Part shown: in pieces, positions 29,530 through 64,000 of the stretch
How the letters are laid out: the number at the start of each line of letters is the position of its first letter
Position numbering within the stretch: the stretch's first letter is position 1
NCBI GenBank assembly: GCA_028282585.1
Contig: JANQHR010000046.1
Span: 1-64,000 of the forward strand
Reading direction: 5' to 3'
DNA length: 64,000 nucleotides
Source: Bacteroidales bacterium
Lineage (GTDB): Bacteria > Bacteroidota > Bacteroidia > Bacteroidales > UBA12077
Translations under genes and position numbers: made by a program
The notes under the pieces: model-generated
What the model saw: only the letters and a program-made list of their open reading frames with translations
What the model was told of the DNA's origin: nothing
Databases searched by the model: none

Positions 29530-30216
29530 TTAATTATATTTAAATGTGCTCAATAAGTCTTCTAAGCTTATATATATTGGATTTTTTGGGAAATTATCTT
29601 TTTCACCACATGCAGCTAATTTATATCCTTCTTCTATATTATATTGCTTAAAAAAAATATCATTTAATATCCTCTCTTCAGATTCTATTTTAATTCTATT
29701 TTCTTTCAAGTGCATTGTGAAGCTATCTAAAGGATGTGATAACCCTTTTCCTATAAATTTGATATAGCTCTCTTTTAATGACCACAGTGTAAAGAAATAA
29801 TCAAAAGGGTCATTACTTAACATTAAATCTTCGTGTTCTTTATTCGAAAAGAAGCTTTTGGATATATTAAGATCAACAGTGAAAATTTTCTCGATATCAA
29901 TACCCACAGGGCTTTTATCTATAGCGCAAATAACCCAATCACCTGAGTGAGACAAATTATAATGAAAGTCAGGTAAATTAACACAACGCGGTTTTCCAAA
30001 TTTATTATTAGTAAAGATTATTTTATCATTTCTGATATCAAAATCCTCGATAATCTTTTTTCTTAAAATTAAATCTCCATATAAGCTCCTAAGTAAATCT
30101 TTTCTAAATACGAACTTTTCTAGTCGTTTTCTTTTTTTAGAATCAATTTTAGTTAGAAGCAACTGTACTAACTCTTCATCAATAGCTTCATTAATATTTA
30201 TAGCATATAAATTCAT
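29530..30216 (-). CDS. Sfp-type 4'-phosphopantetheinyl transferase
   Basis: GKP, YNLSHSGDWV, VGIDIE, WSLKESYIK. Confidence 0.95.
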   Translation of the reverse strand: MNLYAININEAIDEELVQLLLTKIDSKKRKRLEKFVFRKDLLRSLYGDLILRKKIIEDFDIRNDKIIFTNNKFGKPRCVNLPDFHYNLSHSGDWVICAIDKSPVGIDIEKIFTVDLNISKSFFSNKEHEDLMLSNDPFDYFFTLWSLKESYIKFIGKGLSHPLDSFTMHLKENRIKIESEERILNDIFFKQYNIEEGYKLAACGEKDNFPKNPIYISLEDLLSTFKYN

Positions 30217-30227
30217 AATGTGCTTTG

Positions 30228-30947
30228 TTAATAGAATATAGGTGCATTTTCTAACTGAAGCTTATTGTTTATAATTTTAATAACATCTTTGTATTTGTTA
30301 TTAATAAAAAAATGACCGCCGTTGTAAAAGTGAATATTACACGTTTTGAATGTATACTTTTTCCAACTATCAATTTGTTCAGGTGTAAGCTCATCATCTT
30401 TACCTAAAAATACAGTTATATCAAAAGGTAAGGCCTTTATATTATCAGTTTTTTTTGATCGTTCAGATAATTTGAAATCATTTTTTAATAAGGGTAGAAA
30501 TACTTCTAATAATTCTGGATGTTCAAAAAACTCTTTAGGAGTACCTCCTAACTTCATTATTTCTTTTTTAAATTCATCATCGGGTAACTTATAATACTCT
30601 TTTTCATCCTTGCCTGAAATATAAGGTGCTCCTCTACCTGAAAAGAATATATGTTTAGGGATAGGCAAACCATCTTTAATAATTTTCTGGGTTAATTCAT
30701 AAGCTATTTTAGCTCCCATACTATGTCCAAAAAAAGCATAATTACTTTCTTTTTCTATTTCATTACTTATCTGGGAATATACATCTTCAATTACCTCACT
30801 AAAATCATTATAAAAGCTTTCATGTATTCTTTTACCTCTACCTGCTAATTCGACAGGAATTAAATCAATGCTTTTGTTCAATAAGGATTTCCAGTTATTA
30901 TATACTGCTGCTGAACCTCCAGCATATGGAAAACAAAATAACTTCAT
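30228..30947 (-). CDS. Type II thioesterase
   Basis: LFCFPYAGGSA, GHSMG, GGHFF. Confidence 0.95.
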   Translation of the reverse strand: MKLFCFPYAGGSAAVYNNWKSLLNKSIDLIPVELAGRGKRIHESFYNDFSEVIEDVYSQISNEIEKESNYAFFGHSMGAKIAYELTQKIIKDGLPIPKHIFFSGRGAPYISGKDEKEYYKLPDDEFKKEIMKLGGTPKEFFEHPELLEVFLPLLKNDFKLSERSKKTDNIKALPFDITVFLGKDDELTPEQIDSWKKYTFKTCNIHFYNGGHFFINNKYKDVIKIINNKLQLENAPIFY

Positions 30948-30960
30948 ACATTATTAAGAT

Positions 30961-31632
30961 TTAAAGTTCAAATATTTTAGATTTGCCCGGCGACAATATT
31001 TCTACTTCCGAATATTTATCCACCTGTTCTTTAAACTCAAAAGGATTTGTTTCAAGAATTGGAATAGTGTTAAAATGGCACGGAATAACAATTTTTGGCT
31101 TAACCTTCTCTACAGCCCATATTGCTTCAGTAACCCCCATCATGTAATTTGAACAAATCGGAATCATCATTATATCAATATTATAAAGTCTTGATAAATA
31201 TTCCATATCGCTATAAAAAGCAGTGTCACCTGTATGATAAAAAGTTACATCATGTAAGTTAACAATAAAACCACAGGGAGATGCAATATTAGATGAATGA
31301 ATAGCTTGCGTAAAAAATACTTTTATGTCATCTATTTGAATTTCTCCGCCAATATTTCCCCCATATGATTTACACGATTTTTTTCTAGCTAATTCTGCCA
31401 ATTCATATACACCAATAAATGCTGCATTAGTATTTTTGCATATTTTTAAAGCATCTTCAAATCCATGATCCTGATGATCATGCGTTACCAAAACAAAATC
31501 AACTTTTTCAATCTCCTTATAACTTTTAAGGGGACTTTTTGGATTACCTTTTACCCAAGGATCAATTAAAAAAGTATATTTAGACGCCTCAATTTTAAAT
31601 GCAGCATGTCCTAACCATGTTATCTTAACCAT
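30961..31632 (-). CDS. Metallo-beta-lactamase-fold hydrolase (UPF0173-like)
   Basis: WLGHA, IDPW, THDHQDH, YHTGDT, IPCHF. Confidence 0.88.
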   Translation of the reverse strand: MVKITWLGHAAFKIEASKYTFLIDPWVKGNPKSPLKSYKEIEKVDFVLVTHDHQDHGFEDALKICKNTNAAFIGVYELAELARKKSCKSYGGNIGGEIQIDDIKVFFTQAIHSSNIASPCGFIVNLHDVTFYHTGDTAFYSDMEYLSRLYNIDIMMIPICSNYMMGVTEAIWAVEKVKPKIVIPCHFNTIPILETNPFEFKEQVDKYSEVEILSPGKSKIFEL

Positions 31633-31649
31633 ATCGATAATATAATTAT

Positions 31650-31681
31650 GTGTAAGAGGTTATTTAAAATACCTCTTACAC
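31650..31681 (-). terminator. Stem-loop after the three small genes
   Basis: gtgtaagaggt...acctcttacac 11-bp stem. Confidence 0.55.
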
Positions 31682-31691: not shown

Positions 31692-32138
31692 CTATACTTT
31701 CGCTTTTGGTGGATTAGCGTATTCTGATTTCATATTTCCATCATCATCATAGGGCCATTCGTAATTGTATTCAGGATATTCGCCATCTTCATTAACTCCA
31801 GGTTTATATTCATTTTTCCATGCTTTTTCTATTTTTTTTCTTTCCTGATCGTTTGTATTCGGAATTAATTCGAAGCACAACATTTGAATCCAAGGGCCTT
31901 GCATGAACTTCTTCAAGCCTTCTCCCTCAGGATTTTCAAACACATTTCGAACAGCTTTTCTTAAATTATCGGTTGAAGTAATAAACCTGGGATGTATTGG
32001 AGTCTCATGAATAATACCAAAAATACCAAACACAGCAGGTTCTTCTGGCAATTCATCAATATTATCTTTTTTATCCAGATTATAATCTTTATGATAAACT
32101 TCTTGTTTAACAACTCTTTCGTTAAATATTGGATTCAT
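31692..32138 (-). CDS. Hypothetical protein, degenerate GIY-YIG-like
   Basis: LPEEPAVFGIF...FITSTDNLRK resembles LPxxPGVY...YIGxTxNLR, with the catalytic tyrosines lost. Confidence 0.45.
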   Translation of the reverse strand: MNPIFNERVVKQEVYHKDYNLDKKDNIDELPEEPAVFGIFGIIHETPIHPRFITSTDNLRKAVRNVFENPEGEGLKKFMQGPWIQMLCFELIPNTNDQERKKIEKAWKNEYKPGVNEDGEYPEYNYEWPYDDDGNMKSEYANPPKAKV

Positions 32139-32166: not shown

Positions 32167-32529
32167 CTATTTATCGCTCTGAGACATCATCTCTTTATAA
32201 TAGTCATCGCTAACCGGTTCCAGATAACCTTTACCCTCGCAAGTTGACAAATCTATTTCTGCCACACATTTTACCTTATCATAGTTTAAAGTTAAACCTC
32301 CTACTAAATAGACTTTCCCCTTTGCATTTTCAAAATCTGCCTCTTCAAATTTACAATATCTTCGATCTAATTGAATTCCTAGTTCAGTTCCCGTTTCTTT
32401 AAACATAACATGAACATAATCTCTGTCAATACATTCTTTCAATGCAGATGCTTTTTTTTCAGGGCGAACACATTCAATTAAATGTTCTTTTGTTAATCTT
32501 TCTACTAATTCGTTTAATTGTTTTTCCAT
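32167..32529 (-). CDS. NRPS-cluster-associated small protein (resembles the extension domain of 'MbtH-domain proteins')
   Basis: RPEK.A.ALKECIDRDYVHV.F.ETGTELG and LTLNYDKVKCVAEIDL motifs (from recall); lacks the MbtH SxWP...PxGW core. Confidence 0.5.
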   Translation of the reverse strand: MEKQLNELVERLTKEHLIECVRPEKKASALKECIDRDYVHVMFKETGTELGIQLDRRYCKFEEADFENAKGKVYLVGGLTLNYDKVKCVAEIDLSTCEGKGYLEPVSDDYYKEMMSQSDK

Positions 32530-32561
32530 TTTTTACAATTTTATTTTACATACTATAATTG

Positions 32562-32843
32562 TTATAATTCAAAACCTTTATTAAACTCTACTCTCCACTC
32601 TAACTCAGATAATTTCTTCTCTTCATTTAACCTGTACTGAAGCATTTTATGAGTTTCCAACTCTTTCCATATCTCATCTAATTGAGAATTGTCTGAAGGT
32701 GTTAAAAAGAATATAGCAGCTGTAAGACGTGTTAAAATATTTTCATACGGTAATTCCCAATTTGCTATAAGACCTTTTTCTTTTAATTCGTCTAAATGTT
32801 TTTTTACTGCTTTAATTTCCGGAACATTTCCTATCTGTACCAT
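32562..32843 (-). CDS. Hypothetical protein
   Basis: 93-aa ORF with ATG and an AT-rich leader, co-oriented in the operon; WELPYENILTRL. Confidence 0.7.
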   Translation of the reverse strand: MVQIGNVPEIKAVKKHLDELKEKGLIANWELPYENILTRLTAAIFFLTPSDNSQLDEIWKELETHKMLQYRLNEEKKLSELEWRVEFNKGFEL

Positions 32844-33064
32844 AGTAATTTAATTTTTAGGATTAGTAAATATTTGATTGTTTTTGGTATTTGCTATTGA
32901 TATAAATTTTTACAATTTTCATGCTTCAACAAAATAATCCGACTTTAAAAGTTTCATATAACTCTAACGTTTAGTTAGACTATGATTTTCAACTTCTATG
33001 CCATCAGATTGAACTCTTAAGACCCGCAATGTTTTGTCATTATAACATTATTGAGATAAGACTC

Positions 33065-33874
33065 TTAAACTATTTTTCTAAGATAGTACGACATATTTCT
33101 ATTCAGATCCCAATCGCGCGGGTAACCCAAAGAGACTTCTTCGTGCCGAATGCCATTAATTGTTTTTGTTGATCGAATATGTAAGTGTCCATATACAACT
33201 ATTTCTATATTAAAATCATCTAACCATTTTTCAGTTAATGTTGTACCACACCAAATTGAAAATCGGGGAAAAGTATATATTTTTCCTATCCGTTGTAATA
33301 ATGGGTAATGATTAATAAGAATAATTGATTTATCCTTTGGTATTAATTTAAGTCTTCCATTAGTATATTTATACCTTTTATGACACCAATCGGATATAGA
33401 ATTAAAGGGATCTACTTTTAATAAAGCCTCATCAGCACATATTATACCTGATTCTGCTGCCCATTCTTTTTCCTTTCCTCTTTTTACATGGCTAGGTTTA
33501 AAACTATGATCGTACAATACTAAAGTTGGTACAAGACAATAATCTTTCAAATCATTTTTATATATTATGTATTCATCTTCGGGTGTTGTAATGCCATTTT
33601 CCTGACATATTGACACCAAAGAATTGTATTTTTCAACTCCTTTAAGCCTATCTTCTTTAAGAGGAAACGTCCATAAATCATGATTTCCAGGAGTCCATAT
33701 AATTTTATCAAATTTTTTTTTTAATATTGAAATTGCAAATTTTAAATACTCTTCTGTTTCACCAATATCACCAGCTAAAATTAGCCAATCACCTGGGTAT
33801 TCAGGTAATTTCTCAAGAGCATTTCTGTTTATTGAATTTGCTAAATGCAAGTCACTTATAGCATAAATACTCAT
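33065..33874 (-). CDS. Calcineurin-like metallophosphoesterase, PptH (phosphopantetheinyl hydrolase)-like
   Basis: ISDLH, AGD, PGNHDLW, LYDHSF, WCGT, YGHLHI, EVSLGYPRDW. Confidence 0.75.
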   Translation of the reverse strand: MSIYAISDLHLANSINRNALEKLPEYPGDWLILAGDIGETEEYLKFAISILKKKFDKIIWTPGNHDLWTFPLKEDRLKGVEKYNSLVSICQENGITTPEDEYIIYKNDLKDYCLVPTLVLYDHSFKPSHVKRGKEKEWAAESGIICADEALLKVDPFNSISDWCHKRYKYTNGRLKLIPKDKSIILINHYPLLQRIGKIYTFPRFSIWCGTTLTEKWLDDFNIEIVVYGHLHIRSTKTINGIRHEEVSLGYPRDWDLNRNMSYYLRKIV

Positions 33875-33885: not shown

Positions 33886-34578
33886 TTAATAGATATTCTT
33901 AAGAATTTTACAATGTACTTTTTGATTTCGTTTTATTATCTGGAAACAAGGTTTTGCTACTGACTTTACCGATTTATCAGGGAAATAAACTATTCCTCCT
34001 CCAAAGGGGATACCAAATCCTTCAATATCAGAATTTTCTATATAAAACTGATTTTTAAACCTTTCCCAATTATCTTCTTCATGAACAGAAATTATATAAG
34101 GAACTACACCTAACGTATTAGAAAAGCTAACCTTTTCCGTTTCGTTATAATACAACTTTAAACCCAGTTGAATTGCTCCTGCAGAAATTCCTATTATAAC
34201 TGCACCTTCCTTATATCTATTAATAATTATCTTGTCCCAATGATTTTTATGAATTGTATCCCAACCTTTTTTTGTATCGCCTCCTGATAGTAAAATAATA
34301 TCCGCTTTTTCCATGAATTCTTTCTCATCATCAGATGAGCCTGAACAAATCATACAATAATGATTTATATCAATTTGCTTCATAGCAGCTTTAAAAATGT
34401 CATAAAATATAGGATTATTATCATTAGAGGCTCCAATATATGCAGCTTTTATATCATTTACCCTCTTAGGCTCATTTAATATTAATTTCTTAATTTTCTC
34501 CAAAAAGAGATTCTGATCTAATTTATAAAACAGTAATTGACTATCAGCAAATAAAAATATGGGTTTAATGTCACTCAT
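33886..34578 (-). CDS. Peptidase S51 / class I glutamine-amidotransferase-like serine hydrolase
   Basis: AYIGAS, LLSGGD, GISAGA nucleophile elbow. Confidence 0.8.
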   Translation of the reverse strand: MSDIKPIFLFADSQLLFYKLDQNLFLEKIKKLILNEPKRVNDIKAAYIGASNDNNPIFYDIFKAAMKQIDINHYCMICSGSSDDEKEFMEKADIILLSGGDTKKGWDTIHKNHWDKIIINRYKEGAVIIGISAGAIQLGLKLYYNETEKVSFSNTLGVVPYIISVHEEDNWERFKNQFYIENSDIEGFGIPFGGGIVYFPDKSVKSVAKPCFQIIKRNQKVHCKILKNIY

Positions 34579-34609: not shown

Positions 34610-37600
34610 TTAGTTTAATTCAACTTGTACTTTGTCAGAGATTTCATGGCCGTATTCATCCACAATCTTTCCACCATCCATTTTAATAATTCTATCTGCT
34701 ACATTAAAGTAATTATCGTCATGAGTTATTGCTATCACAATCTTTCCATTAGCCTTCATTTCTGGGAGAATCTCATTATAGAAAATTCTCTTATATTCCG
34801 GATCTTGGTCAGCTGCCCATTCATCAAATAAATAAATTTGAGAATCTTCTAAAAAGGTTTTCATTAATGATAATCGCTTTCGTTGTCCATTAGACAATTC
34901 AATTGTTGTAAATGAATCATTATCAACACTAACCTTTTCATCCAACCTTAAAGTTTTTAGGAGATATTCTATTTCCTTCTTTTTTGAGGATACATCTATA
35001 CCATATAATTTTTTAAAAATATGATTATTGCTAAAGATTGTTGAGTAATAATTACCTAAGTCATTACTCTTGGTCTTGACACCGTTAATTTCGATAGATC
35101 CTTGATCAAAAGTATATAGTCCAGTTAAAAGATTTGCTAATGTTGTTTTACCACTTCCGTTACCACCTATTATAAATAATATTTCTCCCTTTTCAATATT
35201 TAAATTGATCGGTCCAATTTTAAAATTTCTATCTTCGCTATTATTCTGATATTCAAAAACTAAGTCTTTAACTAATAATTTATCAACATTTACTTTTTGC
35301 TTTCTAAGTGTAAATATTTCTTTTATATTCAAATCTGGTTTTATTTCATTAATAAATCCTTTAATCCTATTCCACGAAATTTTAATTTGAACTATGTTTG
35401 GAATTGAATTAAGAACTCCATTAATTGGTCCAATTAAATATAAAACAATCATTATAAAAGTAAGTAGTTTATAATTAGGTATCTTTGGAAAAATAAAAGG
35501 GATAATAAATCCGATTGTCCCTAAAACCATTATAAGCAGAGTTTCGCCTACCAAGAATGCATTAACGAATTTAATTAATGCTAATCCGGTTTTATTCTTT
35601 AATTCCGAACAAGATACCTCAACTTCATCGGTATATTCTTTTTTCTTTAATCCCGATAAACTCAGTTCTTTAAAACCATATAAAAGACCATCAATTAAGC
35701 CTGAGAACTTATTGGCAGTATCGCGAGCCTGCTCAAAAAGAATATTAGTTTTACTACTTACAAAGAAATATATTGCAGCAACAAGCAGTATTATGCCTAA
35801 TATAAAACCTGTTGCTACTAATGATATCGAACCCAAATAAATAAAAACACCAACGATTGTAATCAAATTGGAGATCAAACCAATCAATATATTAACAGAA
35901 TTTGATATTGTTGCAGTGTCTTGATTTAAAGTTGCATACACTCTTCCATTATCAATCTTTTCAAATTTCTGAAATGTCGATAAGAAGACTTTGCGTATCA
36001 GTGTCATTCTTAGATCATAAACAATCAACTGTGAAATCTTAATAAGTTTTGTTTGAACAATTTTTCTACTTGCAATATAAAATATCAGTGCTAATCCAAA
36101 ATAATATAATATATATATTGTTTTAGTCTCATTACCAATTGCGTTAATTAACAATAAAATAATAATCATATTAGCTAATCCTGACATAATACCAAGAATA
36201 CTAATCATAGGTAATGATCTGTAATATTGGTTTTTAGTTGGTATCATAATAGAAATAACATTTAATCCCCAAATACCAAATACAGCCATTAAAAATAGTA
36301 GACATGCCCAGTAATAACTGTTAGGAGCCCATACTAATGTAGTTTCCCATGTTAATCCCATTAGAGCTTCTGGTAATAAGTAAATTCCATATATAAATGG
36401 TAAAGTAAGAATAGCACTTCCAAGAATTCTTAGAATTGAACTAAAACTAAAAGCAGCAAATTTTCTTTGTTTTCGAAACACTCCTTTTAACATCCATATT
36501 AGAAGTGATATAATCCCAATAACAAAAACGGCTACAATAAAGGTAATTAATGAAAAGACCTTATCAATAGAATAATCAGGTTCTGATATTTCTTTTATAT
36601 CTTCATTATTAAGCTGACTTAATAAAATGTCACCTAAATATGCCGTATAAGAACTATTCGAATTAGCCAAAATTGCGATACCAATACTCTTACTGGGGAT
36701 TAAACCAATATATGATGAAAAGTTTGGATTTAAACCACTATGAAATACCTTCTTGTCACCATAAGGTTCCACCTCCCATCCATAACCATAAGAAATTAAT
36801 CCTCTTGGATTTACAGTAAAATCGGGTTGATGAGATTTTTCAATAAGGTTTTCAAAATTACAAGAGTCTAATGCAAGTTGAAGCCTTAACCATTTTGCGA
36901 TATCTTCGGCATTAGAAATAACATAGCCTGCCGGATTATTACCTTTAAATCGTGGAGCATTAAATTTCCTAGGATTAAAGAAACTAATCTTAAACCCATC
37001 GGAAAGACTATCATTAATTGGTTTACCGACAGAGGTATATTTTAAACCTAACTGCATGAATAAACTATCTTTGACATATTTTTCAAATGAAAGTTTCGTA
37101 AGTTTTTCAATAATCAAGCCTAAAATATCATAATTTATATTTGAGTATTCATACTTAATTCCAGGTATATTATTAAGTTCTATGTTATTAATAATACGAA
37201 TAGTACTATCTAATAAATTATCTTTATCGCCTTGTGGTATATGTGTCATCGCTTCCCAAGGAATTCCTGATGTATGGCGTAACAGTTGATTAATTGTAAT
37301 ATCAGTTTTATTTTCTTCATAATATGCATTAAACCAAGGTAAATACTTGGAAATATTATCATTCAAATTTAAAAGATTTTGTTTCTCTAGATTCAGAATT
37401 GCTAGCGCAGTAAATGCTTTAGATGTTGATCCCAGTTCAAACAATGTTTTTGATGTAACTTTAGACTCTGATTTTAAGTCAGTATACCCCCAGTTTTTAA
37501 TTGCAATTTCATTCCCGGTCACAAGTATCAAGCTTAAACCTGGGATATCCGCTTTATTATATATTTTATTGCAGATACTATCTATATTTTCGGGAATTTT

Positions 37601-37684
37601 TTCATTATATCCTTGAACCTTACTTCCGTAAATTTGATTGACAAATAAGATAATCAGCAAGCTCTTTATTATTAAAGTTTTCAT
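34610..37684 (-). CDS. Beta-lactamase-fold peptidase fused to a cyclic-peptide ABC exporter (ZmaM/ClbP-type)
   Basis: Signal peptide; SxxK (STSK), YSN, HSGLNPNFSS; TM domain; GGNGSGKTT, LSNGQRKRL, FDEWAADQDP (SyrD/PvdE-type). Confidence 0.9.
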   Translation of the reverse strand: MKTLIIKSLLIILFVNQIYGSKVQGYNEKIPENIDSICNKIYNKADIPGLSLILVTGNEIAIKNWGYTDLKSESKVTSKTLFELGSTSKAFTALAILNLEKQNLLNLNDNISKYLPWFNAYYEENKTDITINQLLRHTSGIPWEAMTHIPQGDKDNLLDSTIRIINNIELNNIPGIKYEYSNINYDILGLIIEKLTKLSFEKYVKDSLFMQLGLKYTSVGKPINDSLSDGFKISFFNPRKFNAPRFKGNNPAGYVISNAEDIAKWLRLQLALDSCNFENLIEKSHQPDFTVNPRGLISYGYGWEVEPYGDKKVFHSGLNPNFSSYIGLIPSKSIGIAILANSNSSYTAYLGDILLSQLNNEDIKEISEPDYSIDKVFSLITFIVAVFVIGIISLLIWMLKGVFRKQRKFAAFSFSSILRILGSAILTLPFIYGIYLLPEALMGLTWETTLVWAPNSYYWACLLFLMAVFGIWGLNVISIMIPTKNQYYRSLPMISILGIMSGLANMIIILLLINAIGNETKTIYILYYFGLALIFYIASRKIVQTKLIKISQLIVYDLRMTLIRKVFLSTFQKFEKIDNGRVYATLNQDTATISNSVNILIGLISNLITIVGVFIYLGSISLVATGFILGIILLVAAIYFFVSSKTNILFEQARDTANKFSGLIDGLLYGFKELSLSGLKKKEYTDEVEVSCSELKNKTGLALIKFVNAFLVGETLLIMVLGTIGFIIPFIFPKIPNYKLLTFIMIVLYLIGPINGVLNSIPNIVQIKISWNRIKGFINEIKPDLNIKEIFTLRKQKVNVDKLLVKDLVFEYQNNSEDRNFKIGPINLNIEKGEILFIIGGNGSGKTTLANLLTGLYTFDQGSIEINGVKTKSNDLGNYYSTIFSNNHIFKKLYGIDVSSKKKEIEYLLKTLRLDEKVSVDNDSFTTIELSNGQRKRLSLMKTFLEDSQIYLFDEWAADQDPEYKRIFYNEILPEMKANGKIVIAITHDDNYFNVADRIIKMDGGKIVDEYGHEISDKVQVELN

Positions 37685-46669: not shown

Positions 46670-46727
46670 ATTTTAATTTTTTATCATTTTAACAACTTAT
46701 AATCAACTTTTTACAATATGTTGTGTA

Positions 46728-48389: not shown

Positions 48390-48492
48390 TTTCTATTAAA
48401 TGGAGATTTATTAAGGCCTAGAAAAAGTTTTAGTCTGCTATTTTTAAACTAAATTGTAAAAGAAGATCTAACAGAGTCTTAGATATTATTCA

Positions 48493-56800: not shown

Positions 56801-59202
56801 GACCATACCTCAACCATTTTCTCCTCATTATCATTTGCAGGCAACTTACAGTCTAATGCATCTAACTCCGGCTCAGGCAATAATTTTCTATTAACTTTTC
56901 CGTTAGCATTTAAAGGAATTGTATCTATTTGAACAAAAAAGGAAGGAATCATATAGTCTGGAAGTGACTTTGATAGCTTATTCCTTATATTAAGATTTTC
57001 ACTATCGGTATCAGAAGTATAATAAACAACAATATATTTTTGACCTGTTTTATCATCAAAATTTATAACAACCGATTCTTTGATCTCTTGAATTTTATTT
57101 AATATCTTTTCAATCTCGCCTAATTCTACTCTAAATCCTCTAATTTTAACCTGGTGATCTATTCTACCCAAGAATTCAATATTTCCGTCGGGCAACCAGC
57201 ATCCTTGATCTCCTGTTTTATATAACAAATCTTTCATTGAACCGGCAAGCTTATTTACAATAAACTTACTATGAGTTAACTCTACTTTGTTTAAATATCC
57301 TCTAGCCAATCCTTCTCCTGCAATACATATCTCTCCAGGAACTCCTATTGGGCACAGCTCATTATATTTATTTGTAATAAAAATCCTCGTGTTACTTCGC
57401 GGTTTTCCAATTAATGAAATCTCATTATCTGATTTTCCCGAGAAATGATATGTAGTAGCTTCAACAGAAGCTTCGGCTGGTCCATAAGCATTTATTATCT
57501 TACCATTCCAATTTAGATATTTTCTGCTATTTTTAACAATTTCGATGGGTATATATTCGCTTCCTAAGGATAGGTGACTAAGATCTGGCAAAATTTCTCT
57601 ATTTGAATCTAACTCTATCATATTAAAAATTTCTTTCATCACAACTGGTACCTCATCAATATTATTAATATGATTATTTCTAAGATAATTAATATAGCTA
57701 CTGATATCTAGCCTCAATTCTTTTTTAATAAGATGTAAAGTTCCCCCTGAAATTAAAGGAGGGAATATTTGCTGAATAGCACCATCAGAAGCATAAGAGT
57801 TAGATAATAATACTTGAAAATCCTTTTTATGACCAAATTCCTTTATTGCCCATAAATTAAACTCTAAAAATGATTTATGTTCTATCAAAATTCCTTTAGG
57901 TACACCTGTAGTTCCAGAAGTGTACATGATATATGCAATGGAGGTTAACCATTCCTCATTTCCTTTACAATTAATGCCTTCCGATCGTAATTCCGTTTTT
58001 ATAATCTTATTTACATTAATTATCCTTTCCGATGGTAATTCTAATTCCTTGATTGTTAACCTATCAGTAATTAAGTATTTTGAATTACTATCTTTTAATA
58101 TAAAATTGATTCTCTCAACCGGATTTGAAATATCTATAGGTAAATATGCTGAACCTGCACGTAACACACCTAATATTGCTATAACCATTTCAATAGATGT
58201 ACTGCAAAGAATCGAAACAATATCATTGGACTTGATACCTTTTTTACATAAGTCAGAGACAACATTTGAAGATTTCTCAAATAATTCTTTATAAGTAATT
58301 TTTTTGTCTTCTAATATTAAAGCTGTACTATTAGGGGTTTTCGCTGCCTGCTCTTCAAAAAGTTGAGGAATTAGTTTAACCTTCGGGAACTCGGTTCTTG
58401 TATCATTAAACTCCTGTATTATAAGCTTTTGTTCTTCAAAACTTAAACTAGTTACTTCTTTTAATGATCTATTCAAATCATAACAAAAAATCTGCTCAAA
58501 AATATGTACTAAGTTTCTTGAAATTCTTTCTATTAAATCCAACGAATAACTAAAAGAATCATAATTGATATTACAATCTATATTTAAACCATCATTATTA
58601 AAATTAAATATTAAACCACAGTTGAAATCTGCAATAGATTCTGAATGATGGAAATCATTTAACATAACAACAACATCAAATAAAGAGCTTTGATTTCTAT
58701 TATTGAATTTACCTATTTGTTTTATCAGTATGTCAACAGGGTAATTCTGGTTACTTGTAGCTTCAATAATTGAATTTCTAATATTTGATAAAAAAGATCG
58801 TACGGAAAGACTTTTGCTAATCTCGATATATATTGGTAATACCGTATTTATCACATTCTTGGTATAACTTTCATTTTTTATAGGAATTCCAATAACCGTA
58901 TCTTTATTACCGGTATATGCCTGAAGTAGAAGAAAAATGCCAGATGTTAACATTACATGAAGCCTTTCTTTGTTACCTCTACTAAACTTTCTTATTGGTT
59001 CAGATATTTTTGTACTGAATTTAATATTATATGTATCATATTTGCAAACATTCCCACTATTTACTCTATTTTCTCTTTTATCAAAAGGAATACAACTAAT
59101 AGATTCAATATCAGAAAGTTTATTTAACCAATAAGATCTTTCCCTGAACTGCTGAAAGGCCCAGACTCTTTTATCCAGATCAGAAACACTCATGCTAATC
59201 AA
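53797..59202 (-). CDS. NRPS: half-C (interface-like)-A-T-E-C
   Basis: YTSGTTGVPKG; GGDSI T; E domain HHLIIDGISW/EGHGRE/RTIGWFT; DCL-type C HHILMDGWC. Confidence 0.94.
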   Translation of the reverse strand: MISMSVSDLDKRVWAFQQFRERSYWLNKLSDIESISCIPFDKRENRVNSGNVCKYDTYNIKFSTKISEPIRKFSRGNKERLHVMLTSGIFLLLQAYTGNKDTVIGIPIKNESYTKNVINTVLPIYIEISKSLSVRSFLSNIRNSIIEATSNQNYPVDILIKQIGKFNNRNQSSLFDVVVMLNDFHHSESIADFNCGLIFNFNNDGLNIDCNINYDSFSYSLDLIERISRNLVHIFEQIFCYDLNRSLKEVTSLSFEEQKLIIQEFNDTRTEFPKVKLIPQLFEEQAAKTPNSTALILEDKKITYKELFEKSSNVVSDLCKKGIKSNDIVSILCSTSIEMVIAILGVLRAGSAYLPIDISNPVERINFILKDSNSKYLITDRLTIKELELPSERIINVNKIIKTELRSEGINCKGNEEWLTSIAYIMYTSGTTGVPKGILIEHKSFLEFNLWAIKEFGHKKDFQVLLSNSYASDGAIQQIFPPLISGGTLHLIKKELRLDISSYINYLRNNHINNIDEVPVVMKEIFNMIELDSNREILPDLSHLSLGSEYIPIEIVKNSRKYLNWNGKIINAYGPAEASVEATTYHFSGKSDNEISLIGKPRSNTRIFITNKYNELCPIGVPGEICIAGEGLARGYLNKVELTHSKFIVNKLAGSMKDLLYKTGDQGCWLPDGNIEFLGRIDHQVKIRGFRVELGEIEKILNKIQEIKESVVINFDDKTGQKYIVVYYTSDTDSENLNIRNKLSKSLPDYMIPSFFVQIDTIPLNANGKVNRKLLPEPELDALDCKLPANDNEEKMVEVWSEVLGIPKDKISTDANFFELGGDSIKTIQIASRLNMYGLKLSVADIFKYQKIDQISKKILKCEREISQSPVTGKIPLIPIQSWLLNTGFMDLHHYNQSVMLYKKEGFDLPIINNVFKELVEHHDILRTVFYKRNNEYFQYNNGLENKNYSIETFNLKGENEVSSFIEKQSNIIQRSIDLEKGPLVKLGHFITNEGDHLLLVIHHLIIDGISWRILLEDFSIAYSSILKDEKPIFPLKTDSYKYWSERLNDYSKSSKLLKEKLYWQKVVEREIPNIPKDFNVKSDCKNIGNQIIKTVSFNKSQTEQILKKSNKAYNTEINDILLSALVKSVCKWGNLSKIAVELEGHGREAIFDDVDINRTIGWFTTQYPIVLENYEDISELIKETKENLRHIPFKGIGYGVLKYSNDENNELFNLKPEICFNYLGEFTGSGISSFEEEELYSFSKYSAGDSISHLMESVYAIEVNGMASGGQLSFTFRYNKHENNENTIEKLTNQFKQSLIEITEHCRLKENNELTPSDFGLKNITLNDFNRLVSVNRNNIQDMYELSPMQYGMLFHSLVDRHSGEYFEQSEIIIEGDIDCKILEKSFNEVLNRYETLRTKFVYEDIDRPLQIVLTKREVKINFKDIRNLDNVEQQKSIETYKTEERYKGFDLSSDNLTKLTLFKTEDQKFTFIWSFHHILMDGWCTTILFRDLLTFYRNVKYGASYKMPPTNKFRNYITWLQSQDNDKSLDFWKKYLQNFNGANSLPKKIKEEPEFKKGKLTLKLEDSVKQRLIQFASRNAVTPNVLLQTVWGLILQLYNDTDDVIFGSVTSGRPSEIENVEEMVGLFINTVPIRIKRNETDTFNTLLDRIKNETLEIKKYEYSSLADIQSFTDKGIELIDHIFLFQNFAINDGFKELNKSSTHINVGFKVQKVHNEEQTNYNFNIIISPGEEFEIITVYNKNLFDDELISNVLNHFRNILEYVVVNPNELLDNQNSMLEIGLTQADSDSFINELNDFAI

Positions 59203-59252
59203 TAATTAAAAGCTATTATTATACTTCTTAATTGCTTATCTTACTATGATGG

Positions 59253-60374
59253 TTAGTTTGAAACGAAACTCTCTAATAAATCAATTGCTTCATTGAATTT
59301 AATAGATTCTATTCCGTAATTTATTCTAAAGTGATTATTTTCACCAAAAACATTACCGGGGAGTAATGAAACATTTTTACTTTTTAAGAGTTTTTGGCAA
59401 AATTCATTTGAATTGATGTTACCTTTAATTTTTGGAAAAGCAACTAGTCCTCCCTGAGGTTCCACATACTCAAAAATATGACGATATTTATGCATAAAGC
59501 TATTTAATGTAGCTACATTACTTAATATTTGTTCTTTAATATGCAGTAATAACTTAGCTCTATTTCTCAAAATAATTAAAGCCAGATAATCACTAATAGG
59601 TGAGGTTACATGTGTTAAATAATGCTTATATTCTCTGCATTCTTCTATAATTTCCTGATCTGAAATTAACCAACCTATTCTTAAACCATTTACACCAAAA
59701 CATTTTGTAATTGATCCGGTTGCTGCAACTTTTTTATGAATTTTATAACATATATCAAATCCTGACAACATCAAATCAGTACCAGACTGCAATGGTAAAA
59801 ACTTATAATGTTCGTCAAATAATAAATAAATATTATGCTTCTTAGCCATATAAGAAATAGCTTTTACTAATTCAATATCAAGTTTAGAGCCAGTTGGATT
59901 GTGTGGGTTATTGATTATTAACAACTTTGTTTTAGGAGTAATTATCGATTCAAGGGTTTCTAAACAGGGTATATAATTTGATTTCTGTTTTAAATCTAAA
60001 TATTTAATTTCACAGCCTATGGCTTTTGGCAGTTCCGATAAAGTCTGAAACTCCGGATACTCTACTATTACTTCATCACCAGGATTTAATATTGAATTAA
60101 AAAAAGTAAATAATGCTTCAGTAACGCCAGTAGTAACTAATACGTTTTCCACATTGACATTTTCATAACAAGAAATTATTTCTTTTCTAAGTTCAATAGA
60201 TCCTCTAGTATCAGGGTTCATTAAATTAATTTTTTTGAGATTATTAATATCTTCATTACAAAGTTCTAATATTTCATTTAATGTAAAATCAACATACCCA
60301 CTTTCTGCCAAATTATATCTAATAAATTGATTATCAGCCAACCAGTCTTCCATAATTAATTTGTCAATTTTCAT
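59253..60374 (-). CDS. Fold-type I PLP enzyme (class I/II aminotransferase; VioD/capreomycidine-synthase-like N-terminus)
   Basis: MEDWL, YNLAESG, NNPHNPTG, DEHY, GSITKCFGVNGLRIGW. Confidence 0.85.
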   Translation of the reverse strand: MKIDKLIMEDWLADNQFIRYNLAESGYVDFTLNEILELCNEDINNLKKINLMNPDTRGSIELRKEIISCYENVNVENVLVTTGVTEALFTFFNSILNPGDEVIVEYPEFQTLSELPKAIGCEIKYLDLKQKSNYIPCLETLESIITPKTKLLIINNPHNPTGSKLDIELVKAISYMAKKHNIYLLFDEHYKFLPLQSGTDLMLSGFDICYKIHKKVAATGSITKCFGVNGLRIGWLISDQEIIEECREYKHYLTHVTSPISDYLALIILRNRAKLLLHIKEQILSNVATLNSFMHKYRHIFEYVEPQGGLVAFPKIKGNINSNEFCQKLLKSKNVSLLPGNVFGENNHFRINYGIESIKFNEAIDLLESFVSN

Positions 60375-61339
60375 ACAAGTGCTCCTTTCTTTTTACCGAT
60401 CAAATCTTTACACTCACAGAATAATCCTTTTAAACCTGATACATCTTGTGTCTTATTAAAAAATTCGATTTCCCGCCGAATATTTTCATCACATTTTGGA
60501 CAAGAATTAGGCATTCTATCTTTAGAAAGGTTTTCATCGCTTAAACCAACAAAAATACAACCTTCCTGATGTGTTTTTAATATTACTTCAACAACACTCC
60601 AAAGGTTTAGCATTCTATATTCGGATTGTAAATATAATTTCTCAAGGTTTGAATCTTCTGATATGAAAACCGGCTCAAATGCTACTCGCGCATTTATCTC
60701 GTACTTTTTAGCAACTGAAAATACATATTTTGCACTTTGAACCGCATCATCGACAGCTTCACTTTCTGTTAGAGTTGGTGGTTTAATTAAAAGATAAACC
60801 AATAATGTACAACCTGATTCTTTTAGTGTCATAACAGTTTTCTCAAAGTCCTCTTTTGATAAGTTTTTATTTATTACTGTGTTTCTTACATAATCGTTAG
60901 CACTTTCAAGTCCAATTCCAAAATCTAATATTTTATTTTTTAGAACTTTTTTACACTCAGCTAATTTTTCAATGGTAACATACTCAGCTCTCGACTCAAT
61001 AGAAACTCTCTTTATATGAGGAATATCTGCAATCATTTTAAGCAAAGTTACTCTTGTTTGGGGATTAACTTCACTATCATTCAAAAAAGATCCAAGTGTT
61101 AGTAAATCAATTTCACCAACATCGTTAAGATCATGTGTTTTTAATGTTCTTTCAAATTGCATTATAATATCATCTTGGGATATGTTGTTACCTGCATTCT
61201 TTATAAATCCACAAACAGTACAACCACCATGATTTTGTCGTGCATATTCACATCCTGTAGTTTTCAACACTACCATAAGTCTATTCGTGTTTATACCATT
61301 TATGTTAACAGGACTTATTCTACTAAAAGCTGGTTCCAT
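60371..61339 (-). CDS. Radical SAM protein, archaeosine RaSEA (TIGR01210)-like
   Basis: GC-X9-CTVCG, GSFL..EV, IESRAEY, GLESAND.VR..INK, YLLIKPP.LTE.EA, LWSVVEV, CPKCD...CEC. Confidence 0.8.
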   Translation of the reverse strand: MEPAFSRISPVNINGINTNRLMVVLKTTGCEYARQNHGGCTVCGFIKNAGNNISQDDIIMQFERTLKTHDLNDVGEIDLLTLGSFLNDSEVNPQTRVTLLKMIADIPHIKRVSIESRAEYVTIEKLAECKKVLKNKILDFGIGLESANDYVRNTVINKNLSKEDFEKTVMTLKESGCTLLVYLLIKPPTLTESEAVDDAVQSAKYVFSVAKKYEINARVAFEPVFISEDSNLEKLYLQSEYRMLNLWSVVEVILKTHQEGCIFVGLSDENLSKDRMPNSCPKCDENIRREIEFFNKTQDVSGLKGLFCECKDLIGKKKGALV

Positions 61340-61368
61340 AATTTCTCAATTTATTAAATTATATATTA

Positions 61369-62919
61369 TTAGAAGTTACCAAAGGAATCACCATACTGTG
61401 AGTCTATAAGGGAAACATTTTCTTTTGCCACAATTATTTCATTAATAGTGATACTAGTATTATTAATGACTTGATTGACAATCTCTTTAAAGTATGTTAT
61501 TATTTTATCAATTGTTTCAGACTTAAATAATCTGATACAGTAAACAAAGCTTATAACTATATCATCTTTTGTTTCAACTACGTCTAATATCAAATCAAAT
61601 TTCGCTACACTTTTAACATGAACTAAATCGTTCTGAGAATTTTGGAAATTATCTTGTAAATCACCTACATTCAAGACATTAAACATAGTATCAAAAATTG
61701 GATTTCTGCTAAAATCTCTAGTTATATTTAATTTCTCAACTAAGTCTTCAAACTGATAATCTTGATTTTCGTAAGCTGATAATGTTCTACTTACTAAATC
61801 CTTAAGAAAATCGTTAAAGCATAAGTCGTACTTTGGATAATTCCGTAATGGTATTGTATTTACGAATATTCCTATAATTTTTTCCAAATCCGGATGGCTT
61901 CGTCCTGCTATAGGTAATCCAACGACTATATCTTGCTGTCCGGTTATTTTTGAAAGTAAGATATTGTATAAGGCTAATAATGTCATGCTAATTGTTGAAT
62001 TAGACTTTTTACATAATTCTCTGATTTTGGATGTAATAGATTTACCTAATAAAAAACTTACAGTGGCTCCCTCATAGCTCTGTGTTTCTGGTCTAGGAAA
62101 GTCATATGGCAAATCAAGTGTAGGAATATTATTGCTAAAAATTTCTAGCCAGTAATCTTCCTGCTTTTTCGTTTCTATATCATTCAGTTTACTATTTTGC
62201 CATTCTGAATAATCTTTATATTGTAACCTAGAATATTTAATACTTTTTCTATTTAAAAGATTTATTAAATCTTTCCTTAAGAGCTCCATTGATATTCCAT
62301 CTGATATGATGTGATGCATATCAACTAATAAATAACATTTACCTTCCTTTTCTTTTATTAACGCAACTCGAAATAATGGAGCTTCATTTAATTTAAATGG
62401 CTTAACAAATTGTACGAAAACAGAATCAATTTCCTTGGTATTCTTAATTTCAAATAGATCTATGTCATAAGAAAGATTCTCTACAATTTTTTGCTTTGGA
62501 TTATCATTATACAATTCAAATGAAATTCTAAAGCTTTCGTGTTTTTGTATAATCTTTTCTACAACAACTTTTAATTCATCAATATTTATATCATTAATAG
62601 GAAGTAACTGAGGCATATTATAAGCAGTACTTGATATATCCATCTGTTGAAGAATATATATTCTCTTTTGTGAAGAAGATAAATTATAATATTCCTTTTT
62701 CTCAGCACAGGAAATACCAGTATGAACCTTTTTTACTACTTTCTTACTAAGAAAATTTAAAAGATCTCTTTTATTATATTTTATTTCTTCTAAAATATCC
62801 GCACTTAAAACACCTTTGGGAGCATTAATTTTTAACTGGCCATTTACATTTTCTATGTATACACCCAAATTATTAAGCTTAGTTACTAAACCTATTACAT
62901 TATTAATATCTGTTTTCAT
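61369..62919 (-). CDS. Stand-alone NRPS condensation protein with a TubC-type docking domain
   Basis: LNNLGVYIENVNGQLKINAPKGVL docking motif; LSSSQKR, HHIISDG, IGIFVNT, AKFDL. Confidence 0.92.
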   Translation of the reverse strand: MKTDINNVIGLVTKLNNLGVYIENVNGQLKINAPKGVLSADILEEIKYNKRDLLNFLSKKVVKKVHTGISCAEKKEYYNLSSSQKRIYILQQMDISSTAYNMPQLLPINDINIDELKVVVEKIIQKHESFRISFELYNDNPKQKIVENLSYDIDLFEIKNTKEIDSVFVQFVKPFKLNEAPLFRVALIKEKEGKCYLLVDMHHIISDGISMELLRKDLINLLNRKSIKYSRLQYKDYSEWQNSKLNDIETKKQEDYWLEIFSNNIPTLDLPYDFPRPETQSYEGATVSFLLGKSITSKIRELCKKSNSTISMTLLALYNILLSKITGQQDIVVGLPIAGRSHPDLEKIIGIFVNTIPLRNYPKYDLCFNDFLKDLVSRTLSAYENQDYQFEDLVEKLNITRDFSRNPIFDTMFNVLNVGDLQDNFQNSQNDLVHVKSVAKFDLILDVVETKDDIVISFVYCIRLFKSETIDKIITYFKEIVNQVINNTSITINEIIVAKENVSLIDSQYGDSFGNF

Positions 62920-63040
62920 GTATATATTCTAGCAGGAATTACTTGCCAAACGATTAAAATACTACTAATAAGACAACTAGATAATTACTATGTTTTATTA
63001 TTAGAAAGTATTTTAGTTTAAAATTTAACTGAGTTTGATA

Positions 63041-64000
63041 CTATATAATCACATTTTCGTACTCTAAATCTTCCAATAAATTATCAGAAGTTTTCATGTT
63101 ACTTATAATTACTGCAATCTCTTCAATTGTTGAAACTTGAAAAATATCCTTTAATGAAAAAGTAATATTAAATGTCTCATTAATCTTATTTATTAACATT
63201 GCGGCTTTAAGAGAATGCCCCCCTATTTCAAAGAAACTTACATTTACACCAATTTCTGTAGTGTTTAGATTTAATATTTCAGCCCAGATTTCGGTAAGTT
63301 TCCTTTCTGTATCATTTCTAGGATTAACTAACTTATTTTTAGGTTCTATCGTTATGTTAGGTAGTTGTGCTTTATCAACTTTCCCATTTTTTGTTAAAGG
63401 AATATGATCCACTTCCATATAATATGAAGGAACCATATAATCTGGCAACTTATTTAATAAAAATTCTCTTAAATGTAAATCAGCATCAACATTCTGAGAT
63501 TCCTTAACGTAATATGCACATAGAAACTTATCATCATCAATCTCCGCATCAACCACTACTATATCTTTTATCGAGTCATGTTTTAACAAGTTATTCTCTA
63601 TTTCTCTCAACTCTATTCTAAAACCTCTCAATTGAACCTGTGAATCTACCCTCCCAAGGTATTCTACTTCTCCATTAAAAAGTACTCTACCTATATCTCC
63701 TGTCTTATACATTCTTTCACCTGAATTGAAAGGATTTATAATGAATTTTTCATTGGTTAAATCTTCCCTTCCGATATATCCTAAACTAACACCATTTCCA
63801 GCTACATATATTTCACCAGGAATTCCGAATGGTTGAACATGCATGTCACGATTTAAAATATACATTCTTAATCCGGGAATTGGTTTTCCAATATTACATA
63901 TTCCATTTTTAACATCTTTAGAAGAAATCTTCTTAAATGTTACGTGAACTGTTGTTTCTGTTATCCCATACATATTAACTAATGAAGTACAAGGATATTT
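63041..64000 (-). CDS. NRPS, 3' part: A(Thr-type)-T (truncated by the window edge)
   Basis: Frame open to the edge; LVNMYGITETTVHVT (Thr signature), YKTGD, GGHSL. Confidence 0.92.
   Translation of the reverse strand, partial: KYPCTSLVNMYGITETTVHVTFKKISSKDVKNGICNIGKPIPGLRMYILNRDMHVQPFGIPGEIYVAGNGVSLGYIGREDLTNEKFIINPFNSGERMYKTGDIGRVLFNGEVEYLGRVDSQVQLRGFRIELREIENNLLKHDSIKDIVVVDAEIDDDKFLCAYYVKESQNVDADLHLREFLLNKLPDYMVPSYYMEVDHIPLTKNGKVDKAQLPNITIEPKNKLVNPRNDTERKLTEIWAEILNLNTTEIGVNVSFFEIGGHSLKAAMLINKINETFNITFSLKDIFQVSTIEEIAVIISNMKTSDNLLEDLEYENVII

Follow-up and report, generated by a model that had tools for sequence, protein, structure and literature searches.

The DNA analyzed here (the window, positions 1-64000 of the 121,020-bp contig JANQHR010000046.1, designated C124) comes from a coral-associated, probably anaerobic Bacteroidales bacterium, and its region 29530-64000 is the 3' third of an intact, co-directional hybrid nonribosomal peptide synthetase (NRPS)-polyketide synthase (PKS) gene cluster of at least 91 kb. 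On the contig, the cluster, whose genes are numbered in the order of transcription (Table 1), encodes 13 adenylation (A) domains, one PKS module made up of ketosynthase, acyltransferase, ketoreductase, and dehydratase domains (KS-AT-KR-DH), a methoxymalonyl-acyl carrier protein (ACP) cassette, an in-line glycosyltransferase of the GT4 type, and nine radical S-adenosylmethionine (rSAM) units. Six of these units are stand-alone enzymes (four B12-type, one MiaB/RimO-like, and one RaSEA-like), and three are didomains, with an rSAM domain followed by a B12-binding domain, that are embedded in A domains. To our knowledge, the tailoring of nonribosomal peptides is understood almost entirely from aerobes, in which unactivated carbons are functionalized by O2-dependent enzymes; the cluster described here is a whole assembly line with radical SAM chemistry in place of such tailoring. 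The account that we favor, and consider reasonably probable, is that of a single intact hybrid NRPS-PKS line with O2-independent tailoring that includes radical C-methylation of carrier-bound residues. The draft genome (G000) comprises 4.89 Mb in 173 contigs, with a GC content of 31.9%, a completeness of 98.35%, and a contamination of 3.89%.

A preliminary description of the window had reported more than 34 kb of co-oriented NRPS genes with four rSAM enzymes at protein junctions and had read them as a pathway for a peptide heavily tailored by O2-independent chemistry in an anaerobic member of the Bacteroidota. What it observed is real and understated, and its reading of the tailoring as O2-independent radical chemistry is right in spirit. 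All 19 genes of region 29530-64000 lie on the minus strand in the domain order given there, as re-derived from open reading frames (ORFs) of at least 100 amino acids (aa), Pfam matches, and a domain map that used the cluster's own domains as queries, and the four rSAM genes are placed between NRPS genes. The size fell well short of the actual extent: beyond position 64000 the same strand continues with 15 further ORFs, and the cluster spans at least positions 29530-120751 of the contig, the end of which cuts it off. The first ORF (g01) is open at the contig end, and the upstream frame there still reads a thiolation (T)-domain motif. The nine rSAM units, together with the absence of any Pfam family of O2-dependent oxygenases among the cluster hits, bear out the proposed kind of tailoring, and the proposed host agrees with the presence of genes for pyruvate:ferredoxin oxidoreductase (nifJ type) and a SusC/SusD pair, which share the left part of the window with rho and a sigma-70 gene.

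The assembly line is modular and of type I: Pfam recognizes A, T, and condensation (C) domains, with their core motifs, in a repeated C-A-T order. All ten specificity-code positions align in each of the 13 A domains, HHxxxD is present in the full C domains, the T-domain serine in 14 of 14 cases, and CxxxCxxC in eight of the nine rSAM units, the ninth (g17) having instead a Cx9Cx2C triad of cysteines at positions 30, 40, and 43. The gaps between neighboring genes are 156 bp or shorter in 31 of 33 cases, the exceptions being one of 299 bp, which contains the ACP ORF, and one of 535 bp. The methoxymalonyl-ACP cassette is recognizable at the level of domain types only (Pfam), with an FkbH-like HAD protein, two dehydrogenases, an O-methyltransferase, and an ACP beside the PKS module, a set that we take to be FkbGHIJK-like. 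An Sfp-type phosphopantetheinyl transferase (PPTase) and a type II thioesterase (TE) are encoded; no in-line TE or reductase (R) domain was seen on the contig, beyond which the 5' part of the cluster lies, and the last module ends in a divergent C domain. The left border at the PPTase gene is a good one, because a strong terminator-like hairpin is found 3' of this gene; a promoter scan was uninformative (44 sites versus 41.8 expected).

The embedded didomains interrupt the A domains of g02, g10, and g13 after approximately residue 108, between core motifs a2 and a3, by approximately 550 residues in which, according to Pfam, the Radical_SAM domain comes first and the B12-binding domain second (residues 681-844 and 1020-1131, respectively, in g10). 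Class B enzymes usually have the opposite order, with the B12-binding domain N-terminal to the rSAM core, as it is in g11, g20, g22, and g24 but in none of the embedded units. The KedN5 profile hits the insert in the same permuted order, with profile positions 158-388 on its N-terminal part and 17-157 on its C-terminal part. The CxxxCxxC motifs of the embedded units are intact (CPYKCLYC, CPFKCAYC, and CPYKCAYC), and PF02310 (B12-binding) scores 39.5-47.5 bits in all three, with a cut-off of 32.1. In an AlphaFold (AF2) model of the insert (pLDDT, 87.3; pTM, 0.86), residues 16-350 match rSAM cores (AprD4, Z 20.7; RimO, 18.5; MgmA, 17.3; TsrM, 16.1; OxsB, 15.5; CysS, 12.3; TokK, 11.6), and in the B12-type enzymes among the matched chains the match starts only past their own N-terminal B12 domain; residues 361-535 match the cobalamin-binding Rossmann domains of MetH (1bmt_B, Z 11.2), MtaC (11.1), and corrinoid proteins, with Z values of 10.9-11.8. 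In a model of the A[rSAM-B12]-T unit (pLDDT, 86.7), the two A pieces, taken together, can be superposed on complete A domains (4d56; TMt, 0.91; 1,026 alignment columns). These are interrupted A domains, with a foreign domain between core motifs and both A parts retained; the insert is neither a class I SAM-dependent methyltransferase (M) domain of families 1-7 nor a KR or Ox domain and, because it combines Radical_SAM and B12-binding domains, falls outside every described interrupted-A family. Two of the proteins carry inserts between motifs a8 and a9 as well, g13 in the first of its two A domains and g02 in the A domain that already contains the didomain; judging from its sequence, g02 is a doubly interrupted A domain of new composition. 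These two a8-a9 inserts are unrelated to each other and to the methyltransferase insert of g21.

The permuted B12-rSAM-in-A fusion is conserved and occurs in hundreds of NRPS proteins of uncultured anaerobes. A word-indexed search with the insert returned, among 8,000 scored candidates, 693 proteins of NRPS length at an E value of 1e-10 or lower, and an exhaustive HMMER scan of 1.84 billion cluster representatives returned 1,061 at 1e-30 or lower, the best 150 of which all score at least 618 bits within proteins of 725-7,548 residues. The best 120 relatives of the insert are 51-59% identical to the query, apart from one 98% twin, and 119 of them carry NRPS Pfam families; the hosts named among these 120 include Candidatus Aminicenantes, Acidobacteriota, Clostridia (e.g., Clostridium tagluense), Kapabacteria, and others. 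The remaining protein, P0001 (1,122 aa, Candidatus Aminicenantes), has no NRPS domains and consists of two rSAM-B12 units of the embedded type in a free-standing tandem; its longest contig is equal in size to that of an A[rSAM-B12] NRPS protein. In a sample of 401 Bacteroidota genomes, the fusion was found in two, the present one and another (G277) that has an ordinary 32-kb NRPS-PKS cluster with a single C-A[rSAM-B12]-T-C protein. A related-locus search with a single protein had as its sole match a near-identical Bacteroidales metagenome-assembled genome (98%-identical protein). By the broader searches and the genome sample, the interrupted A[rSAM-B12] domain is widespread in metagenomes of anaerobes and rare in Bacteroidota. 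The stand-alone enzymes of the g20/g11 type are found in 1,504 proteins (E values of 1e-20 or lower), and ten contig sizes (up to 125 kb) recur between the lists of the best 120 relatives of this type and of A[rSAM-B12], which suggests, the contigs having been compared by size only, that the free enzymes travel with the embedded ones. In the present genome, contig C25 (4,026 bp) encodes a second RaSEA-like rSAM, 29% identical to g17, adjoining a C-A gene; the last A-domain position on the contig is 104, immediately ahead of the rSAM-B12 insertion site, and so the break in the assembly may be due to a fourth embedded copy.

Two types of junction split the line into many proteins, one in which a protein ending in T is followed by a docking domain (DD) and a C domain, and another in which a protein ending in a full C domain is followed by a half-C domain and an A domain. 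Docking domains of the TubC_N type are present in four of the five full-C-starting proteins that follow a T-ending protein; none was detected in g13. At junctions of the second type, the first approximately 250 residues of g02, g09, g19, and g21 correspond to the C-terminal lobe of the C domain alone, with no HHxxxD. In each case the preceding NRPS protein has a full C domain at its end, g02 following it directly and the others after one or two tailoring genes, and three of the four are directly preceded by a tailoring gene (g08, g17-g18, and g20). The idea that the half-C domains are remnants of a recent truncation was rejected: the four lobes are each other's best matches (24-32% identity) and are closer to one another than to full C domains, and 116 of 177 related proteins that have the embedded domain within their first 700 residues also start with a half-C lobe lacking HHxxxD. 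The half-C domain is therefore a conserved split of the module between C and A, not decay. The recruitment of P450s by the X domain of glycopeptide NRPSs is similar in that a catalytically dead C-type domain stands beside trans-acting tailoring enzymes; the half-C domain, however, consists of the C-terminal lobe only, is N-terminal to the A domain, and is invariably preceded by a protein with a full C domain at its end. A truncated and probably inactive C domain at a loading module is known from ThdA (PMC7253712).

As to the chemistry, the embedded didomains, and probably the stand-alone B12-type enzymes too, would combine a 5'-deoxyadenosyl radical with methylcobalamin and deliver methyl groups to unactivated side-chain carbons of aminoacyl or peptidyl thioesters on the neighboring T domain. 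Such a reaction would be the NRPS counterpart of the polytheonamide-type methylation of RiPPs (peptides that are made on ribosomes and modified after translation), as well as of the CysS and DscE reactions. The likeliest function of the embedded didomain is to C-methylate the residue on the carrier by on-line radical chemistry, although we give it about an even chance of being correct. Class B rSAM enzymes mostly methylate unactivated carbons. The specificity codes of 221 related interrupted A domains, extracted by alignment to g21, are diverse (DFWNIGMVH, 39 times; DAWFLGNVV, 16 times; DGFFLGVVY, 15 times; DLTKIGEVG, 9 times; and many more), and those of the three embedded copies in g02, g10, and g13 differ from each other (DPFYFGTINK, DLTKVGEVGK, and DAEHIGEVTK). 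Other codes are taken to be those of Thr, Asn/Asp, Gln/Glu, Val, Pro, and Ser. The Leu and Ile/Val codes match the table in PMC7253712. Because the relatives have many codes and the three copies here have different ones, the chemistry is not tied to one side chain. The insertion site also fits methylation: TioN and MarQ have their side-chain methyltransferases inserted at a2-a3, whereas backbone N-methyltransferases are found at a8-a9 (PMC11355689). In NRPS pathways, CysS acts on and prefers pantetheinylated substrates (PMC8950095 and PMC12846815), and DscE C-methylates Ala and Val positions of discodermin, a finished NRPS peptide (PMC12858407).

These features lead us to a broader proposal, which we put forward tentatively and hold at somewhat less than even confidence. 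The A[rSAM then B12] arrangement would be an undescribed, widespread eighth family of interrupted A domains, with a circularly permuted cobalamin rSAM enzyme that carries out C-H functionalization, most likely beta-C-methylation, of the just-loaded amino acid; together with recurrent trans-acting B12-rSAMs and conserved N-terminal half-C lobes, it would form an "anaerobic NRPS toolkit" that does by radicals what P450s and iron/2-oxoglutarate enzymes do in aerobes. The present cluster, with its nine rSAM units, would be the richest example of this toolkit seen here. If the embedded enzyme is an on-line C-methylase of broad scope, it would offer a portable part for tert-leucine-like and beta-methyl residues in engineered NRPSs, would explain a blind spot of genome-mining software, whose product predictions would be wrong, and would extend to a large family the "RiPP-like modification in NRPS" that was described in 2025 for a single free-standing enzyme.

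The stand-alone enzymes are less uniform. By its sequence, g22 is a near member of the PhpK family (TIGR04479), whose profile positions 1-502 of 504 align with residues 5-506, and g20 and g24 are B12-type enzymes without a curated NCBIfam family; the B12-binding Pfam hit is under the gathering score in g20 and g22. The RaSEA-family protein g17 matches a queuine lyase (6p78, E = 3.9e-5), and the pyridoxal phosphate (PLP) enzyme g18 scores 326.6 bits against GntC (NF041364; cut-off, 415) and 229.2 bits against VioD (TIGR03947; cut-off, 390.9), below the cut-off in both cases. These two genes lie directly ahead of module g19, whose specificity code has acidic pocket residues, and it is a reasonable guess that g17 and g18 supply a cyclized basic amino acid to this module by an O2-independent route. 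An alternative is that the stand-alone rSAMs and the PLP enzyme make free nonproteinogenic amino acids before loading and do not act on carrier-bound intermediates or on the finished peptide. The resemblance of g17 and g18 to building-block enzymes speaks for it, the GntC and VioD families acting on free hydroxy-arginine according to their family descriptions, as do the unusual codes of the A domains of g19, g13, g14, and g23. However, the tailoring genes are interleaved singly with the module genes, the g20-type and A[rSAM-B12] relatives share the ten contig sizes mentioned above, and the known enzymes CysS and DscE work on a pantetheinylated substrate and on a finished peptide, respectively; we therefore consider this alternative somewhat unlikely.

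Several points weigh against C-methylation of carrier-bound residues or against other parts of the account that we favor. The chemistry is read from sequences and models, and B12-type rSAM enzymes also catalyze reactions other than methylation. The nearest solved structure to the embedded domain, both by sequence (E = 1.2e-9) and by fold (Z 20.7), is AprD4, a 1,2-diol dehydratase; the best NCBIfam hits of the embedded domain (BchE, PhpK, and ApyD) are all far under the cut-offs, which leaves it with no function from a curated family. The assignment of specificity codes to amino acids is in part provisional. The 5' end of the cluster is missing, and five more small contigs (C126, C148, C97, C25, and C31) hold NRPS pieces that are unplaced, which affects the module order, the product size, and the release step; the starter module of C126 in particular sits on a contig separate from the cluster. 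No RNA run is among the sequencing runs listed as holding the region. Finally, two cobalamin-synthesis families, CbiB/CobD (PF03186) and CbiG_C (PF01890), the only two considered, have no match in the 98.35%-complete genome, although the cluster encodes seven B12-type rSAM units, and the B12 cofactor would thus probably need to be imported. Along with the coral origin, the lack of a match for these two marker families hints at a product whose synthesis relies on community corrinoids.

The first of these points could mean that methyl transfer is not the reaction of the embedded didomains, nor of some of the stand-alone rSAMs, and that they catalyze instead the dehydration or desaturation, C-C or C-S cross-linking, rearrangement, or epimerization of a tethered residue. 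Besides the likeness to AprD4, such a view can draw on the top NCBIfam hit of g10, the cyclase BchE, on the lack of a hit at cut-off to any curated methylase family, and on g08, whose MiaB/RimO-like score (Table 1) points to methylthiolation and not to methylation. It has to contend with a conserved C-terminal Rossmann domain that matches true cobalamin binders, with an insertion site that is the seat of side-chain methyltransferases, and with broad specificity codes, which fit generic beta-carbon methylation as in polytheonamides (compare PMC12858407). With this evidence, non-methylating chemistry appears unlikely. An epimerase role of the embedded rSAM in particular was judged unlikely: among 241 embedded domains examined, a normal epimerization (E) domain follows 26 of the 170 evaluable modules.

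Full-text searches of open-access and bioRxiv papers turned up no description of an rSAM domain inside an A domain or of this cluster layout. The catalog of interrupted A domains published in 2020 (PMC8341866) lists seven families, all with M domains, and includes doubly interrupted A domains; in its available text, the terms "radical", "B12", "cobalamin", and "rSAM" do not occur. The described members (TioN, MarQ, TioS, and KtzH; families 1-7 of Lundy et al. 2020) resemble the domains reported here in having an insertion into a loop between core motifs that leaves the A fold whole, and TioN and MarQ share the a2-a3 site with them. They differ in the kind of insert, which here is a [4Fe-4S]/cobalamin radical enzyme of 550 residues and not a class I SAM methyltransferase, and g02 adds the second, weakly QueC/PP-loop-like insert at a8-a9. 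CysS (cystobactamid) and DscE (discodermin) likewise combine a CxxxCxxC rSAM core with a B12 Rossmann domain and are encoded in NRPS clusters, but they are single, free-standing, and of the B12-then-rSAM order, whereas here up to seven B12-type units serve one line, three of them fused and in the reversed order; the similarity of the embedded domain to solved class B members is low, as the Z values for CysS and TokK given above indicate. The polytheonamide enzymes PoyB and PoyC are comparable in carrying out many O2-free radical C-methylations on differing residues of one peptide, as the enzymes here might, and the codes of the related A domains, typical of Thr, Leu, Ile/Val, Asn/Asp, and Gln/Glu, approximate the range of residues methylated in polytheonamides; that system, however, is ribosomal and leader dependent, and the substrate here would be a carrier-domain thioester. 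The RiPP methyltransferase family TIGR03975, with a cut-off of 281.85 bits, gives the embedded domains scores of only 31.7-50.7 bits, and g20 and g11 scores of 77.7-93.6 bits. That the cluster is a close relative of an already characterized pathway is very unlikely: the literature covered is open-access text only, which leaves some room for such a relative, but no paper in it reports an rSAM inside an A domain, and a 2025 paper (PMC12858407) already calls an NRPS with a stand-alone rSAM methyltransferase "an unusual enzyme combination".

Lastly, the layout is hardly an assembly chimera or a decaying and silent cluster, a reading that we consider extremely improbable even though the draft is split into 173 contigs with 3.89% contamination, NRPS repeats have broken the assembly into at least five extra fragments, and the runs listed as holding the region include no RNA. 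The preliminary description had allowed that upstream frameshifts might reveal a dead cluster; there is no internal stop in any of the 33 cluster ORFs on the contig, and the set of catalytic motifs is complete. A 47,954-bp contig from a second, independent sample is collinear over 44001-64000 at approximately 97.5% identity, with 507 substitutions and 7 indels. The latter form compensating pairs (47371/47376 and 61447/61450), are intergenic (46683 and 63023), or, at 52066, fall just upstream of Met13 of g21, the true start of which is probably Met11 or Met13. Such a pattern of indels and substitutions is what one would see if purifying selection acted on a real operon. In three other studies, short contigs account for 27 to 30 of the 30 bins. 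Overall, metagenomes of corals and coral reefs contain DNA of the region (12 runs from 5 studies, one of which could be the source of the genome); runs with small shares (X8-X12) were left out of the interpretation.

The genes that follow the last module suggest how the product could leave the cell. A MacB-type ATP-binding cassette (ABC) system would export it, and a periplasmic ClbP-like peptidase would remove an N-acyl-D-Asn prodrug cap in the style of colibactin and xenocoumacin or would act in self-protection. The cluster does encode what is predicted from sequence to be a periplasmic, membrane-anchored S12 peptidase, g26, which combines, like the ClbP/XcnG/ZmaM group, a signal peptide, an S12 domain, membrane segments, and an ABC ATPase. 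ZmaM is known for such a fusion, and N-acyl-D-Asn is the known motif of these prodrugs. In contrast to those systems, the best match of g26 in the PDB is Flp (E = 3.6e-58) and not ClbP (E = 4.1e-41), and the starter module found in the genome is on another contig. This contig, C126 (10,914 bp), encodes FAAL-ACP-C-A(DLTKIGEVGK)-T-E followed by C-A(Val-like) and has a GC content of 0.284, similar to that of the cluster. If the code DLTKIGEVGK is Asn-like, as we assume, this lipo-initiation module could build an N-acyl-D-Asn cap. It is equally possible that g26 is a D-stereospecific resistance peptidase.

The cluster is AT-rich, as had been noted: its nine 10-kb windows have GC contents of 0.281-0.298, approximately 2 standard deviations below the genome mean of 0.318 (standard deviation, 0.017), and only 4.7% of the other genome windows have values of 0.29 or less. 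The tetranucleotide distance of the cluster is 0.135-0.156, versus 0.070 (standard deviation, 0.018; maximum, 0.137) for random 30-kb pieces. The horizontal acquisition suggested in the preliminary description thus stands only in part. The composition and the patchy distribution (2 of 401 Bacteroidota genomes; common in Aminicenantes, Acidobacteriota, and Clostridia) fit acquisition from another phylum without proving it, and the searches around the tmRNA gene described below gave neither an integrase nor an att repeat; NRPS genes can be compositionally odd for other reasons. The further claim that the cluster abuts the end of a transfer-messenger RNA (tmRNA) island was wrong, as the tmRNA gene is 11 kb from position 29530 and a resistance-nodulation-division (RND) efflux operon and regulators lie in between. 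No integrase family was found among the ten ORFs between 14667 and 27708, and the tmRNA 3' end (last 60 nt) has no repeat of at least 14 nt anywhere in the assembly, the far end of the cluster being beyond the contig; a tmRNA-targeted genomic island was rejected on these grounds. The intervening genes are the RND operon itself (OEP, AcrB, and HlyD; 18623-24340) and a LytTR response regulator/histidine-kinase-like pair (27229-28544), which may or may not serve the pathway in export or regulation.

Table 1. Features of the cluster and its surroundings in the order of transcription (contig positions; cluster genes are on the minus strand)
Feature	Position	Description	Basis
g01	contig end (open)	..T-C-A-T-C	
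g02	110954-116254	half-C-A-T; A domain with two inserts (rSAM-B12 at a2-a3, second at a8-a9)	
Embedded rSAM-then-B12 didomains (L001-L003)	72403-74067, 84271-85992, 113465-115096	three didomains, in g13, g10, and g02	
Second insert of g02	111365-112507	322 aa, at a8-a9; weakly QueC/PP-loop-like	E 0.028 (sub-threshold)
Cassette after g02		3-hydroxyacyl-CoA dehydrogenase, HAD-like protein, 81-aa ACP, methyltransferase, acyl-CoA dehydrogenase	Pfam
ACP-like ORF	108712-108957	81 aa, free ACP of the cassette	
g07		KS-AT-KR-DH-T-C-A-T-C	
g08		MiaB/RimO-like rSAM	185.2 bits, subfamily cut-off 251 (NCBIfam)
g09	88027-95223	half-C-A-T-GT4-C-A-T	
g10		DD-C-A-T; rSAM-B12 insert in A domain	
g11	81237-82895	B12-rSAM, CPFQCSFC, paralog of g20	
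g12		alpha/beta hydrolase	
g13		C-A-T-C-A-T; inserts in both A domains	
Insert in first A domain of g13	76123-76965	237 aa, at a8-a9; Acetyltransf_15 hint	E 0.086 (sub-threshold)
g14		DD-C-A-T-C	
g15	63041-66229 (63041-64000 in window: A-T)	C-A-T: divergent C (HHLIIDT), A code DFWSIGMVHK (Thr-like), T	Pfam, domain map
g16	61369-62919	TubC_N-type docking domain and full C (HHIISDG)	Pfam, motif
g17	60371-61339	RaSEA-family rSAM	TIGR01210, 229.2 bits, cut-off 212.15
g18	59253-60374	PLP enzyme of GntC/VioD (cyclic-guanidine amino acid) type	Aminotran_1_2; NCBIfam below cut-off
g19	53797-59202	half-C (C-terminal lobe, no HHxxxD), A (DGQDSGAVEK), T, E (EGHGRE and FNYLG motifs), C	
g20	52086-53813	stand-alone B12-type rSAM, CPFQCSFC	509.8 bits to paralog g11
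g21	48493-52098	half-C, A (DASTIAAICK, aromatic-type) with PRMT5-like methyltransferase between a8 and a9, T	
g22	46728-48389	PhpK-family B12-rSAM, CPFKCSFC	TIGR04479, 587.4 bits, cut-off 600
g23	41996-46669	DD, C, A (DAEYVGEVTK), T, divergent terminal C (HHILFDI)	
g24	40143-41969	B12-rSAM, CQYACKFC	TIGR04190-related, 158 bits, cut-off 500
g25	37750-40122	MacB/FtsX-type ABC permease	Pfam, transmembrane segments
g26	34610-37684	signal peptide, S12 (ClbP/Flp-like) peptidase, ~9 transmembrane segments, ABC ATPase	Pfam, PDB, hydropathy, SxxK motifs
g27	33886-34578	S51 peptidase-like	Pfam
g28	33065-33874	metallophosphoesterase	Pfam
g31	30961-31632	MBL-fold hydrolase	Pfam
g32	30228-30947	type II thioesterase	PF00975, 138.3 bits
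g33	29530-30216	Sfp-type 4'-phosphopantetheinyl transferase, last gene of the operon	PF01648, PF22624
Terminator-like hairpin	29482-29511	minus strand; 13-bp stem and T run, 19 nt 3' of the PPTase stop	
tmRNA gene	17912-18309	tag peptide GENNYALAA	

Some smaller features of the cluster deserve mention. The GT4 glycosyltransferase of g09 (residues ~887-1198) is an in-line domain, flanked by a T domain and the C domain that comes next. Between g28 and g31, a 120-aa ORF (32167-32529) scores 29.9 bits against CBF_beta, a eukaryotic Pfam family with a gathering score of 25 bits, and the adjoining 148-aa ORF (31692-32138) has no Pfam family. The 535-bp gap next to the former (32530-33064) holds a 93-aa ORF on the minus strand.

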